Source of the DNA: Pelagomonas calceolata
Lineage: Eukaryota
Direction: 5' to 3'
DNA: 64,000 nucleotides
Assembly: GCA_918797485.1 (NCBI GenBank)
Contig: CAKKNE010000001.1
Span: 4,402,001-4,466,000, forward strand
A program made the position numbers and the translations under genes. The notes under the pieces are model-generated. The model was not told where the DNA came from, did no database searches, and saw nothing but the letters and a program-made list of their open reading frames with translations. This document shows, in pieces, positions 47,373 to 54,054 of this stretch; position 1 is the first letter of the stretch, and the number at the start of each line of letters is the position of its first letter.

Positions 47373-48260
47373 TTATGCTGCCGCCTTCTTCTTCGATGGC
47401 GCCTCCCCACCACTCGCGGCTGCGGCGCGCTTCTTGCTGTCGCGCCGCGCGACGGCCGCGAGCCGCCGTTCTTCGATCGCCGCGGCCGTCGCCGCATCAA
47501 TTGTAGAAGAGGGCAGCTCGAACTCGGGCGCCGGCGCCGCGCTCCCCCTACCAGACGCCTCGCCCGCGACGCCGCGCTGCACGAGCGCGTCCGCGCGCTC
47601 GTTCAGCGCGTCGCCGCTGTGGCCCTTGACGTGCTCCAACGCGAGTTTCCGCTTCCGCCGCGTGCCCTCGGAACAGTACAGGTCCCTACACGTCTTCGCG
47701 AGGTCGACGTTCTTGTGGGCCCGGAACGCGCCGGACGTGATGTTCGCCGCGTACGTGGAATCATAACATAAAGCCGCCGGCCCGTCGCTCCCCTCCTCGT
47801 CGCGCAGCCACAGCAGGGCTTCGGCGACGCCGCTGAGCTCGCCCGTGTTGTTCGATTTTTTCTCCGCGCCGAGGTAGTGCGCGTGTCCCGAGTCGATCAC
47901 GACCGGCCCCCACCGCTCCGCCAGCACCTTGCCGTCGCGGACCGCGATGAACCCCCAGCCCGCCGGCTGGTCCCGCTTACTGTCGACGTTCTGGTTGCCG
48001 CGGCAGCCGCCGTCCGTGTAGACGGCGACGGTGCCCTTCGGCGGCTTGTACGTTGTACGCTTCGGCTTCGTCGTGGACGAAGCGCGCGTGGCGGGCGCGG
48101 GGCTCCCGCGCACAAACGCCGCGGCCTCGGACTGGCTCTTGAACTTCTTGAACCGCGCGCCCGCGAAGCCGCTCACGAGTCTCTCGGCCTCGGGCCAGGA
48201 CCCGAAGACGCCCGTTGCTCTTCCTCTAGCTACGGCGTAGAACATGCGCTGGGCGGACAT
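47373..48260 (-). CDS. RNH1: Ribonuclease H1 with N-terminal hybrid-binding (Cauli_VI) domain
   Basis: FYAVARGRATGVFGSW..FKKF; VYTDGGC, NNTGEL, YDSTY, HVKGHSG..NERADAL. Confidence 0.92.
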   Translation of the reverse strand: MSAQRMFYAVARGRATGVFGSWPEAERLVSGFAGARFKKFKSQSEAAAFVRGSPAPATRASSTTKPKRTTYKPPKGTVAVYTDGGCRGNQNVDSKRDQPAGWGFIAVRDGKVLAERWGPVVIDSGHAHYLGAEKKSNNTGELSGVAEALLWLRDEEGSDGPAALCYDSTYAANITSGAFRAHKNVDLAKTCRDLYCSEGTRRKRKLALEHVKGHSGDALNERADALVQRGVAGEASGRGSAAPAPEFELPSSTIDAATAAAIEERRLAAVARRDSKKRAAAASGGEAPSKKKAAA

Positions 48261-48696: not shown

Positions 48697-51031
48697 ATGG
48701 CGAACCCTATTGTTTGCATCAGCGTCTTAGTACGTCAAAGTGACAGCGCTCTGCGATTTTCGTGCAACCGCGGCAATCAGCGACCGAGGAAAGGCCAGGA
48801 GGCCTGCCTCGCTGATGCTCTGCGCGCGTGACGCGCGGCGGCGCCCTGCAGCAAGCGAGCAGCCACGAGTGGAGCACGCCCGTCGCCGCCGCAGCCCTGC
48901 ACGCATCCACATAAAACATGCAAAAAATCCGCCGCGACCGCCGACCGCCAAAACGCGCGCAGGTCTTCTTCGACATGTCCATCGGCGGCCAGCCGGCGGG
49001 GCGCATCGAGATGACGCTCCGCGCGGACGTCGTCCCGAAGACGGCCGAGAACTTCCGCTGCCTCTGCACGGGCGAGAAGGGTGCCGCGGCCGCGTCCCTC
49101 TTTTCTCAAACAACTCCGTGGCGCAATGGATAGCGTATCAGACTTCGAATCTGGGGGTTGCGGGTTCGAGTCCCGTCGGAGTTGTTTCGCCGATCGCGCG
49201 GCGGCCGTTCAGTATCCGTGGCCGAGTTGGTCTTTCATCTATGATGAACCATGAAGGCGTTGGATTTAAGCCCCAATCTCTTCGGAGGCGTGGGTTCGAA
49301 CCCCACCGGATGCACACATGAACGCCGTCGACGCGACACCGGACGGACTGGAAAATCTGAAGGTCGCGGGTTCGACTCCCGCATCGGTCTCTCCGCGGAT
49401 TGGACTTTGTGCAAGATAGTGTGGCCGAGTGGTTAAGGCGGTAGACTTGAAATCTACTCCCGTAAGGGTCGCAGGATCGATTCTCACAAAATCGATGCGC
49501 GTTCGAACCCTGTCACTATCGCGCACGTTGATGATGTGGCCGAGTGGTCTAAGCTCCTGTGAGCGACCAGAGGCGCTGGTTTTAGGCACCAGTCTTCGGG
49601 CGTGGGTTCGAACCCCACCATCATCACGACAAGTCCTTTCCGCACATTTGTATCCGTGGCCGAGTTGGTCTAAGGCGTTGGATTTAAGCCCCAATCTCTT
49701 CGGAGGCGTGGGTTCGAACCCCACCGGATGCATTTGGACCGATTGGCGCAACGGTAGCGCGTCAGATTCCAGTCCTGAAGGTTACGCGTTCGAATCGCGT
49801 ATCGGTCATAGAGCGCGTGTCGACGGTACGTTCCTACGCAGGCACGGGCCGCTCGGGCAAGCCGCTCTACTTCAAGGGCTCCACCTTCCACCGCGTCATC
49901 ACGGACTTCATGTGCCAGGGCGGCGACTTCACGCGCGGCAACGGTGCCGCGGCCGCGTCCTATGCATATTTGGGGGTGTAGCTCAGTGGCAGAGCGTCCG
50001 CTTTGCATGCGGAAAGCCCAGGGTTCAAACCCCTGCTCCTCCACACACACACAACTCCGTGGCGCAATGGATAGCGTATCAGACTTCGAATCTGGGGGTT
50101 GCGGGTTCGAGTCCCGTCGGAGTTGTTGCTGCTCGACGGCGCGGAGGTGGAGCCTCGCACGCCGAGACCGGGCCGGTCACGCGCGCACGCGCAGGCACGG
50201 GCGGCGAGTCCATCTACGGCGAGAAGTTCGCCGACGAGAACTTCCAGCTCCGCCACACGGGCCCCGGCGTGCTCTCGATGGCCAACGCCGGCCCGGGCAC
50301 GAACGGCTCCCAGTACCGCGGCCGCGTCCTTTCATTCAACTCCGTGGCGCAATGGATAGCGTATCAGACTTCGAATCTGGGGGTTGCGGGTTCGAGTCCC
50401 GTCGGAGTTGTTGCTCGATAGCGTGGTGCGTCTCGACGCACCACGATCTGGACGGACTGGAAATCTGAAGGTCGCGGGTTCGACTCCCGCATCGGTCTTG
50501 CTTGCGGATTGGACTACGATAGTGTGGCCGAGTGGTTAAGGCGGTAGACTTGAAATCTACTCCCGCAAGGGTCGCAGGATCGATTCTCACAAAATCGATG
50601 CGCGTTCGAACCCTGTCACTATCGCGCACAAAGTCCTTTCTGCACATTTGTATCCGTGGCCGAGTTGGTCTTTCGTCTATGACGAGCCACGAAGGCGTTG
50701 GATTTAAGCCCCAATCTCTCCGGAGGCGTGGGTTCGAACCCCACCGGATGCATTTGATACATTTGACCGATGGGCGCCACGGTGGCGCGTCAGACTCCAG
50801 TCCGATGTCAGATTCCAGTCCTCCGAGAGAGCATACAAGGGCAATGTCGACGGTACAATCACACGCAGGTTCTTCCTCTGCACGGTCAAGACCGACTGGC
50901 TCGACGGCAAGCACGTCGTCTTCGGCTCCGTGACCAAGGGCATGGACGTCGTCAAGAAGATCGAGGCCGTCGGCTCGGGGTCCGGCGCGACGGCCAAGCC
51001 GGTCGTCATCACCGACTGCGGCCAGCTCTAA
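48697..51031 (+). CDS. Cyclophilin (PPIase), 171 aa; exons 48697-48711, 48963-49080, 49842-49943, 50195-50312, 50869-51031
   Basis: Four GT-AG introns removed give [89 protein letters not shown]. Confidence 0.95.
49112..49184 (+). tRNA. tRNA-Arg(TCG), copy 1
   Basis: Acceptor AACTCCG/CGGAGTT, anticodon arm TCAGA-CTTCGAA-TCTGG, GGTTCGAGTCC. Confidence 0.93.
49212..49314 (+). tRNA. tRNA-Leu(TAA) with 20-nt D-loop intron (49234-49253)
   Basis: Identical to the intronless copy 49650-49732 once the insert is removed. Confidence 0.88.
49345..49390 (+). tRNA. Orphan 3' half of tRNA-Trp with anti-anticodon leader, copy 1
   Basis: ATCTGAAGGTCGCGGGTTCGACTCCCGCATCGGTC, preceded by GGACTGGA. Confidence 0.6.
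49415..49521 (+). tRNA. tRNA-Ser(TGA) with 26-nt T-arm intron (49476-49501)
   Basis: Acceptor GATAGTG/CACTATC-G, GTAGA-CTTGAAA-TCTAC, long variable arm; GCAGG|TTCGAAC is restored after removing the insert. Confidence 0.88.
49530..49626 (+). tRNA. tRNA-Leu(TAG) with 19-nt D-loop intron (49552-49570)
   Basis: Acceptor GATGATG/CATCATC-A, CTGGT-TTTAGGC-ACCAG; GGTCTA|AGGC is restored after removing the insert. Confidence 0.87.
49650..49732 (+). tRNA. tRNA-Leu(TAA), intronless
   Basis: Acceptor GTATCCG/CGGATGC-A, loop TTTAAGC, variable arm, GGTTCGAACCC. Confidence 0.92.
49737..49808 (+). tRNA. tRNA-Trp(CCA), contiguous, with A31-C39 mismatch
   Basis: Acceptor GACCGAT/ATCGGTC-A, D stem GCGC/GCGC, loop TTCCAGT, T stem ACGCG/CGCGT. 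Confidence 0.8.
49972..50043 (+). tRNA. tRNA-Ala(TGC)
   Basis: G3:U70 identity pair, TCCGC-TTTGCAT-GCGGA, GGTTCAAACCC. Confidence 0.92.
50053..50125 (+). tRNA. tRNA-Arg(TCG), copy 2
   Basis: Identical to 49112-49184. Confidence 0.93.
50338..50410 (+). tRNA. tRNA-Arg(TCG), copy 3
   Basis: Identical to 49112-49184. Confidence 0.93.
50454..50498 (+). tRNA. Orphan 3' half of tRNA-Trp with anti-anticodon leader, copy 2
   Basis: Same as 49345-49390 apart from one A in the leader. Confidence 0.6.
50518..50624 (+). tRNA. tRNA-Ser(TGA) with 26-nt T-arm intron (50579-50604), copy 2
   Basis: Near-identical to 49415-49521 (one variable-loop change). Confidence 0.88.
50650..50752 (+). tRNA. tRNA-Leu(TAA) with 20-nt D-loop intron (50672-50691)
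   Basis: Same body as the other Leu(TAA) copies (one variable-loop change); intron variant TTCGTCTATGACGAGCCACG. Confidence 0.87.
50765..50821 (+). pseudogene. Degenerate 5' half of tRNA-Trp with duplicated anticodon segment
   Basis: GACCGATGGGCGCCACGGTGGCGCGTCAGACTCCAGTCC, then GTCAGATTCCAGTCC again. U8, A14 and A21 are altered and no T arm follows. Confidence 0.6.
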
Positions 51032-52713: not shown

Positions 52714-54054
52714 CTACATCATGTCGTCGCCCTCCTCGTCCTCGTCGAACTCGCCCTCCTCCTCGGCCGTCGCGTCCTGGTACTGCTGGTACTCGGAGAC
52801 GAGGTCGTTCATGTTGGACTCGGCCTCGGTGAACTCCATCTCGTCCATGCCCTCGCCCGTGTACCAGTGGAGGAACGCCTTGCGGCGGAACATGGCCGTG
52901 AACTGCTCGGCGACGCGCTTCCACGTCTCCTGGACGGCCGTCGTGTTGCCGATGAACGTCGTCGCCATCTTGAGGCCCTTGGGCGGGATGTCGCAGATGG
53001 CCGACTTGACGTTGTTCGGGATCCACTCGACGAAGTACGACGAGTTCTTGTTGACGACGTTGAGCATCTGCTCGTCGACCTCCTTCGTGGACATGCGGCC
53101 GCGGAAGAGGCACGAGCACGTGAGGTAGCGGCCGTGGCGCGGGTCGGCGGCGCACATCATGTTCTTGGCGTCGAACTGCTGCTGCGTGAGCTCCGGCACC
53201 GTGAGCGCGCGGTACTGCTGCGAGCCGCGCGACGTGAGCGGCGCGAAGCCGACCATGAAGAAGTGGAGCCGGGGGAACGGGACCATGTTGACCGCGAGCT
53301 TGCGGAGGTCGCAGTTGAGCTGGCCCGGGAAGCGGAGCGAGCACGTCGTGCCGCAGACCGCCGCCGCGATGAGGTGGTTTAGGTCACCGTACGTCGGCGT
53401 CGTGAGCTTGAGCGTGCGGAAGCAGATGTCGTAGAGCGCCTCGTTGTCGAGCGTGAAGCACTGGTCCGAGTTCTCGACGAGCTGGTGCACCGAGAGCGTC
53501 GCGTTGTAGGGCTCGACGACCGTGTCCGACACCTTGGGCGACGGGATCACGGAGTACGTCGACATGACGCGGTCGGGGTACTCCTCGCGGATCTTGGAGA
53601 TGAGGAGCGTGCCCATGCCGGCGCCCGTGCCGCCGCCCATGGAGTGGACGAGCTGGAAGCCCTGGAGGCAGTCGCAGGACTCGGCCTCCTTGCGCACGAC
53701 GTCGAGGACGGAGTCGATGAGCTCCGCGCCTTCCGTGTAGTGGCCCTTGGCCCAGTTGTTGCCCGCGCCCGTCTGGCCGAAGACGAAGTTGTCCGGGCGG
53801 AAGAGCTGGCCGAAGGGGCCCGCGCGGACGGAGTCCATGGTGCCGGGCTCGAGGTCCATGAGGATGGCGCGCGGCACGTAGCGGCCGCCCGTCGCCTCGT
53901 TGTAGTAGACGTTGATGCGCTCGAGCTGGAGGTCCGAGTCGCCGTGGTACGTGCCCGTCGGGTCGACGCCGTGCTCGTCGGAGATGACCTCCCAGAACTT
54001 GGCGCCGATCTGGTTGCCGCACTGGCCGCCCTGGATGTGGACGATCTCGCGCAT
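52714..54054 (-). CDS. TUBB: Beta-tubulin
   Basis: [24 protein letters not shown], acidic tail; 446 aa. Confidence 0.98.

Follow-up and report, generated by a model that had tools for sequence, protein, structure and literature searches.

The gene for a cyclophilin at positions 48697-51031 of a 64,000-nucleotide (nt) stretch of the genome of Pelagomonas calceolata, a GC-rich marine alga (contig CAKKNE010000001.1; hereafter the window) carries tRNA genes inside its introns. Introns 2 and 4 also contain an orphan tRNA 3' half, which lies upstream of a tRNA-Trp 5' half on the same strand. The halves do stand in permuted order and are complementary, and the 3' half is conserved. The orphan resembles a permuted pre-tRNA in its predicted fold; on the features tested it is not a permuted tRNA gene. 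We put at about even the chance that the orphan and the Trp 5' half form an unspliced, permuted, tRNA-shaped clamp, which would be cut by RNase P and RNase Z and so release the tRNA cassette that it brackets.

In intron 2 (49081-49841, + strand, as for every feature of this gene) the orphan occupies 49355-49390 and corresponds by sequence and alignment to tRNA positions A38 to U73. It is preceded by a leader (49345-49354, from repeat search and folding) that is antisense to the Trp anticodon loop and the next 3 nt. Repeat search located a second leader (50454-50462) and orphan (50463-50498) in intron 4. The geometry given in a preliminary description of the window proved accurate. The 35-nt 3' halves at 49355-49389 and 50463-50497 are 100% identical to each other; the leader GGACTGGA occurs at 49345 and 50454 and its complement TCCAGTCC at 49768, 50796 and 50814; and the 5' acceptor strand of tRNA-Trp, GACCGAT, is located at 49737 and 50765. 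In intron 2 the halves are 346 nt apart and have whole Ser(TGA), Leu(TAG) and Leu(TAA) tRNAs between them; in intron 4 they are 266 nt apart, with whole Ser(TGA) and Leu(TAA) tRNAs between. The composition-based chance of the 8-mer within 4 offsets of the orphan is ~8e-5, and the predicted leader/anticodon duplex has a probability of 0.89-0.98 in both introns. The orphan's predicted partner in intron 2 is the 5' half (49737-49772) of a complete tRNA-Trp(CCA) at 49737-49808, which is recognised by ARAGORN and Rfam. In intron 4 the partner, identified from the sequence at 50765-50828 and present only in the window, is a Trp 5' half without its own 3' half, whose trailer pairs with the leader. 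It is degenerate, as had been noted: G8, C14, G21 and C32 mark differences at position 32 and at U8, A14 and A21, which are lost, and an 18-nt tandem duplication of the anticodon arm follows. Every helix is retained.

As a stand-in for a genome-wide census, a metagenome scan was made with a pattern fitting both 3' halves, which gave 102 stretches, stored as 100 loci (L numbers). This pattern took in the window-type orphan only; other orphan types were met only beside Trp matches. The 113 pattern matches comprise 96 directly behind a Trp 5' half, nine window-type orphans, each preceded by the same leader, and eight that are cut off, damaged or unrelated. The uninterrupted gene from which such a 3' half might have decayed, considered in the preliminary description, is absent from the metagenome loci: none of the 113 matches is an intact gene with a window-type half (0/9 of that type). 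A looser pattern applied to the loci gave 23 orphans (some of them repeats of one contig or allele) with eight distinct sequences, none of them directly behind a Trp anticodon arm (0/23). Judging from translations, their host introns belong to cyclophilin, ABC-type elongation-factor-like, cold-shock-domain and other genes, and they occur in two lineages with cyclophilin exons that are 93-97% identical. A Trp 5' half lies downstream of 19 of the 23; the remaining four contigs stop within 90-252 nt. A general orphan pattern had no match in viral or in prokaryote contigs (0 and 0).

Apart from a single G-U wobble, the orphan alignment shows no change in A38-G45 (with UCUGA), the acceptor strand or U73. 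All 60 of 60 T-stem cells are paired; two of the five T-stem pairs differ on both sides, and 0 of 500 shuffles match this covariation score, which is inflated by the relatedness of the sequences. No stem change is left uncompensated in the 12 distinct orphan rows. The T-loop varies, and variable-loop positions 46-48 take six forms in the eight distinct orphan sequences but a single one in intact Trp; upstream of A38, substitutions and indels occur throughout. This pattern of sequence change indicates that the orphan is under selection and is not a decaying fragment.

Folding predicts a further helix, the bracket, which begins 3-5 nt past U73 and closes behind Ser and/or Leu(TAG). It pairs 49395-49407 with 49631-49643 in intron 2, and 50503-50515 with 50632-50644 in intron 4, where it encloses Ser(TGA) (50503-50644). 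The tRNA polycistron that had been proposed as the spacer is real, and predicted to be closed by the bracket; the spacer between the halves measures 135-362 nt across cassettes and is partly folded out by the helix. In 10 of the 15 scored cassettes the bracket ends 3-5 nt before Trp G1, and in the other five, the window included, Leu(TAA) intervenes. Against shuffled partners the helix comes out ahead (fraction 0.05 or less) for 13 of the 20 cases; the L033 row, where the contig ends, is counted among the misses. The bracket arms of L004, L019, L039 and L045 have a wholly different sequence, with complementarity kept. A second Trp isodecoder with another acceptor stem is found in L017, L036, L041 and L044, and the orphan fits only the Trp directly behind the bracket.

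With the helices forced, 14 of 15 cassettes prefer the permuted over the contiguous fold, by 5.8-14.3 kcal/mol (the scoring leaves out L027 and intron 4); shuffling the leader (six shuffles per locus) lowers this margin to about 0-9 kcal/mol. The probability of the Trp's own fold is 0.00 in 14 of 15 cassettes. Computationally joined, the halves give a full cloverleaf, and ARAGORN, with its threshold lowered to 80%, calls all eight chimera types and the intron-4 chimera tRNA-Trp.

The junction at which such joining would take place does not resemble a tRNA splice site. A motif of 4-bp (base pair) helix, 3-nt bulge and helix is found in 0 of 11 permuted junctions, whether cut at 37/38 or anywhere else between 26 and 45, bearing out the earlier caution that there is no clean bulge-helix-bulge (BHB) motif. 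The neighbouring tRNA introns served as a control: all 31 distinct ones have the HBh' motif, made up of 4-bp helix, 3-nt bulge and intron stem; across the enclosed Ser(TGA), Leu(TAG) and Leu(TAA) genes, taken in no particular order, the counts are 7/7, 13/13 and 11/11 distinct introns. These introns lie at 53/54 and in the D-arm, with cuts predicted after the second bulge base, and their removal restores a normal tRNA, the intron-less Leu(TAA) serving as comparison. Their stems co-vary, and Leu(TAA) occurs both with and without an intron. At the permuted junction the leader turns the anticodon loop into one unbroken helix; 0, 1, 2 or about 5 bases, not a fixed 3, stay unpaired where the 3' cut would fall. 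As all 11 of 11 junctions have a purine at position -3, a yeast-type ruler cut is still conceivable. Permuted genes characteristically have a transcription unit of their own with a downstream T-stretch, which is lacking in introns 2-4; these introns contain two T4 runs only, neither 3' of a Trp half. We rejected the 18-nt duplication of intron 4 as a tRNA intron, there being no HBh' in any register and registers only 0.4 kcal/mol apart, and the leader as the orphan's own anticodon, which would read GGA, TGG or TAG, or be an 8-11-nt loop, depending on the copy.

Comparison with the contiguous tRNA-Trp is also unfavourable to a joined product. All 96 intact Trp matches of the metagenome loci have C39 and A73. 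The A31-C39 mismatch is present in every intact Trp(CCA) (96/96) and Leu(TAA) (14/14); it is therefore the norm of the lineage, is ruled out as a sign of decay, and makes the 'better' anticodon stem previously credited to the chimera no argument for it. The discriminator of the joined tRNA would be T, as had been foreseen: U73 is found in 23 of 23 orphans versus A73 in 96 of 96 intact Trp. The cited passages of PMC1538984 give A73 as the major identity element of tryptophanyl-tRNA synthetase in eukaryotes and do not mention the effect of U73 itself. The proposal of a circularly permuted tRNA-Trp thus survives in part. Its order, complementarity, conserved 3' half and polycistron spacer stand, but ligation into a working tRNA-Trp does not, given the missing splicing motif (0/11 vs 31/31), the unpaired stretch of 0-5 nt, the fixed U73 and the abundance of intact Trp.

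Two poly(A) runs of a single sample (about 6% of each was used), one ribosomal-RNA-depleted metatranscriptome and one DNA run supplied reads for mapping to the stretch 49734-50516 only. The mapped stretch contains the good 5' half and an identical orphan, and a chimera would appear in it as a 49772-to-50463 joint. None was present among the best 15 of 16 joints, a result of low power, as mature tRNAs and circles are not poly(A), the strain may differ and the rows considered leave aside 104 loose ends and 22 variant rows. Each RNA run has one T>A place in this stretch, which might or might not be at position 38. Reads bearing tRNAs are plentiful, sense-stranded and long-flanked, which shows that tRNA precursors are present in poly(A) RNA; the Trp depth is about 800 in X21, with 770 of 819 reads from other copies. 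A contig of DNA run X1 has the orphan followed by an L010-type flank, so the same organism has a further orphan copy. Several readings were rejected. The backward joint 49808-to-49737 is not a circle, as 32 other letters lie between and are present in X1 DNA contigs, and other backward joints, from Arg to Ala or Trp with spacer letters, are tandem genes elsewhere. Were the 5' half in intron 2 cis-spliced to the 3' half in intron 4, exons 3-4, which are spliced in (>2000 reads), would be lost and the intron-2 orphan left unexplained. At 50472-50491, 8 and 6 RNA reads carry G66 and a different T-stem pair in a related 3' half; the cousin tRNA from which they come may, by its sequence, be the parent of the orphan.

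RNase P and tRNase Z recognise the acceptor stem as well as the T arm (passages of PMC3978253). Constraint on the orphan falls on the acceptor, the T-arm and the anticodon duplex but not on the tertiary core, the discriminator or a splice motif, and so matches what these two enzymes need. It is because of this match that we favour the clamp over a ligated permuted tRNA, sequestration, a relic or a mini-tRNA, which are discussed below. Release from longer transcripts would be in keeping with the rarity of T4 runs, one of which lies within 50 nt downstream in only 2 of the 81 Trp contexts. The folding predictions suggest that the bracket would close first, placing the orphan acceptor strand beside Trp G1, and that the orphan would then form 7 bp with the Trp acceptor strand and 10-14 bp with the Trp anticodon arm and loop. 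RNase Z would cut after U73 and RNase P before G1, while the long anticodon duplex would keep the two cut intron pieces together. The Trp would mature later, if at all from this copy, after degradation of the orphan. The clamp may have begun as a tandem tRNA gene that lost its 5' half by decay, the course set out in the duplication model of permuted genes, and that stalled before a spliceable junction arose.

Several observations weigh against the clamp. Cleavage by RNase P and RNase Z is something that we infer. L053 does not favour the permuted fold (+0.7 kcal/mol), and in intron 2 of the window the permuted acceptor has an ensemble probability of 0.02, although that of the anticodon duplex is 0.96. 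No co-variation with U38/A38 of Trp is seen in the leader's GGAC part, and the energy models leave aside modifications, tertiary contacts and proteins. The covariation consists of two pairs only, and the sequences that carry them are related and belong to two close lineages. The intron-4 5' half, known from the window alone, could contain assembly errors. L019, L039 and L059 lack the orphan yet have the bracket helix. Nor is a clamp generally needed, as 26 introns carry a lone Trp, and the upstream Arg lies outside it.

One alternative is a true type II circularly permuted tRNA-Trp. The tRNA-splicing endonuclease (TSEN) would cut after G37 and before A38, ligase would close a 340-420-nt circle containing the Ser and Leu tRNAs, and RNase P and RNase Z would open it; leader and trailer may be rejoined, in which case the host intron survives. 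Such processing would account for conservation beginning at A38, the canonical site, and would suit the purine at -3, the ARAGORN calls at lowered threshold, U48 matching A15 in six of eight types, the A31-U39 pair that the chimera would restore, and the flexible TSEN of a lineage with 31 non-canonical introns. An intron 4 without an outer 3' half is, moreover, the end state of the duplication model (PMC3978253, in part). We nevertheless find this reading doubtful, because no HBh'/hBH junction forms (at best three of four central pairs), the 5' site lies inside an unbroken helix, the unpaired 3' stretch varies over 0-5 nt, the product would have U73, the intron-4 half is without U8, A14 and A21, the gene would be redundant with 96 intact Trp matches, and the 49772-to-50463 joint is missing from the best 15 of 16 joints, at low power. 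Its boldest form is unlikely: the first permuted tRNA gene of a stramenopile, set in spliceosomal introns with a helix-closed polycistron as spacer, the cassette being excised as a circle, a U73 tRNA-Trp with a repaired stem being made, the host intron being re-sealed and mobile introns serving as a supply of tRNA genes. A trans-spliced tRNA was rejected. In split tRNAs of the Nanoarchaeum type the halves are at separate loci, have their own promoters and are joined at a BHB; here both halves are in one intron and there is no BHB. Part of this background is from PMC3978253.

The remaining readings do without splicing. The orphan could be a cis-acting anti-tRNA, itself uncut, holding the Trp downstream of it, which is 25-45 nt away from the 3' splice site, in a misfolded state up to the splicing of the intron. 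The leader with A38-A43 is a near-perfect complement of Trp 27-36/40, except in L053 and partly in the L041 type, and the own-fold probability of Trp, 0.00 in 14 of 15 cassettes, also speaks for sequestration; but it leaves the kept T-arm, the T-loop consensus and U73 unexplained, lone-Trp introns have no orphan, and intron 4 has no whole Trp to hold back. We consider it improbable. As a relic, the orphan would descend from a dead tRNA gene, its 3' half having been spread and made uniform through recombination between highly dynamic cassettes, with T-arm variants copied from a parent gene. Stems without uncompensated change in 12 distinct rows, beside loops and an upstream part free to vary, are hard to reconcile with this, as is the failure to find an intact gene with the window-type half in 113 matches. 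The cassette content does differ between near-identical intron-4 alleles (window, L033, L045, L016), 5'-half-like remnants lie upstream in several copies, the related RNA reads attest a cousin tRNA, and the orphan is lost in three loci. We consider a relic improbable as well. Finally, the orphan might pair with a degenerate acceptor strand just upstream and be excised alone, as a mascRNA-like mini-tRNA. The upstream remnant of L056 can form a 7-bp acceptor with two wobbles, and ARAGORN at lowered threshold reports Pro(TGG) in L017, L036, L043 and L056. The upstream strand is mismatched in most copies, however, and absent in L004/L045, the L010 type, L033 and L053; it resembles an intron-end repeat, and the Trp partner is preferred in folding. 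This last reading is very improbable.

The cyclophilin gene has five exons. Exon 1 (48697-48711) is predicted; exons 2 (48963-49080), 3 (49842-49943), 4 (50195-50312) and 5 (50869-51031) are supported by translation and spliced reads. The GT-AG ends of introns 2, 3 (49944-50194) and 4 (50313-50868) are backed by stranded poly(A) reads, and intron 1 is a prediction only. The intron-3 joint is covered by 1527 + 624 poly(A) reads in the two runs; the joins of exons 2-3 (1411/717 reads) and 4-5 (975/434) were seen as loose read ends. Intron 2 has introner-like paired ends around its tRNA cassette, intron 3 holds two tRNAs, and the cassette of intron 4 opens with Arg(TCG). The whole tRNAs in introns 2-4 number 11, of which ARAGORN finds 6 and Rfam 9, and repeat search adds two intron-bearing Leu(TAA). 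Besides the Trp, intron 2 contains Arg(TCG) (49112-49184; ARAGORN, Rfam), Leu(TAA) with a 20-nt D-loop HBh' intron at 49234-49253 (49212-49314; repeat search), Ser(TGA) with a 26-nt HBh' intron at 53/54, 49476-49501 (49415-49521; Rfam), Leu(TAG) with a 19-nt D-arm HBh' intron at 49552-49570 (49530-49626; Rfam) and an intron-less Leu(TAA) (49650-49732; ARAGORN, Rfam). Intron 3 contains Ala(TGC) (49972-50044) and Arg(TCG) (50053-50125), both from ARAGORN and Rfam. Intron 4 contains Arg(TCG) (50338-50410; Rfam), Ser(TGA) (50518-50624; Rfam) and Leu(TAA) with a 20-nt D-loop intron (50650-50752; repeat search). A further bracket-like helix, 49199-49211 with 49319-49330, encloses the intron-bearing Leu(TAA) of intron 2. 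The near-identical alleles of cyclophilin intron 4 (window, L033, L045, L079, L016) have different tRNA cassettes, which indicates frequent recombination among cassettes. Divergent from the cyclophilin gene is an RNase H1-like open reading frame (47373-48260, - strand; named by reading of its translation), and a beta-tubulin gene without introns lies at 52714-54054 (- strand). For one neighbouring protein the best named relative is from Pelagophyceae sp. CCMP2097 (53%).

The loci also include 26 spliceosomal introns of 139-165 nt (~147 nt) that have shared, paired ends and one intact tRNA-Trp between variable spacers (L001, L002, L011, L014, L024, L026, L031, L046, L049, L055, L058, L064, L074, L075 and others). 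They stand in 18 distinct junction contexts, a site count that metagenome mis-joins across the repeated tRNA may inflate where a junction shares one flank only. Their sequence makes it likely that they are tRNA-carrying introner elements. The Trp introns of L003/L018 and L026/L051 have only one exon flank in common, through exon shuffling via the repeated intron or as assembly chimeras. In similar introns tRNA-Sec(TCA) stands directly behind tRNA-Trp (L023:2538-2624, L054, L076, L093), and Trp-Sec-like flanks are common in the poly(A) reads.

A literature search, with most subscription papers outside it, found no pelagophyte in which permuted tRNAs, tRNA-carrying introners or non-canonical tRNA introns have been reported; the word 'tRNA' is absent from the main text of PMC9481584, and its supplements may bear on the point. 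Even without splicing, the orphan and its partner exemplify, in a living organism, the halfway stage that has been proposed on the way to permuted tRNA genes. One gene has both the state with the outer half kept and that with the outer half lost, so the duplication model is testable in a culturable alga. The locus also presents an unusual tRNA economy, with tRNA genes in repeated spliceosomal introns without terminators, together with tRNA introns of archaeal/red-algal type in a stramenopile. Standard annotation misses or misnames these Ser and Leu genes, as the ARAGORN count (6/11 whole tRNAs) illustrates, and the locus bears directly on how tRNAs leave a pre-mRNA without destroying it.

Type II (37/38) permuted tRNA genes are described, in the cited passages of PMC3978253, from Cyanidioschyzon merolae, Ostreococcus, Micromonas and the Bigelowiella nucleomorph; the table of 34 permuted genes given there has spacers of 1-74 nt, no Trp and no stramenopile. 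The halves studied here share with these genes a same-strand 3' half upstream of the 5' half, the 37/38 boundary, leader-trailer pairing and a full cloverleaf. They differ in a spacer of 135-362 nt with whole tRNAs and in the lack of the BHB/hBH that known junctions form (PMC3978253, in part). They further differ in lying within spliceosomal introns, in having no terminator, in U73 and in the intact copy adjacent. As in the tandem-duplication intermediate of PMC3978253, the upstream 5' half is decayed and the downstream 3' half is kept (intron 2) or lost (intron 4), and the extra partial 5' half of intron 4 resembles that noted there for Cys of O. lucimarinus; the model, however, begins with an intron-containing gene that supplies the BHB, and there is no such motif here.

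MALAT1 mascRNA and Arabidopsis GUT15 are likewise tRNA-shaped elements in RNA polymerase II transcripts that serve as RNase P and RNase Z substrates, that of GUT15 being intronic (PMC6152437, in part; the mechanism is partly general background). Those elements fold locally from one stretch, whereas the clamp would consist of two distant, swapped halves, one of them taken over from an actual tRNA gene. The enclosed Ser and Leu genes, with their D-arm and T-stem HBh' introns, recall the BHB-type tRNA introns of C. merolae and Chondrus crispus (passages of PMC3978253 and of the PlantRNA 2.0 preprint), but here such non-canonical introns are found in a pelagophyte stramenopile. The shared, paired intron ends at many sites are like those of pelagophyte introner elements (PMC9481584 and PMC11282704, in part), and tRNAs within host introns are known from C. 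elegans (PMC4999229). Unlike in either of these systems, the repeated intron itself bears the tRNA genes, singly or as cassettes, mostly without a T-run.

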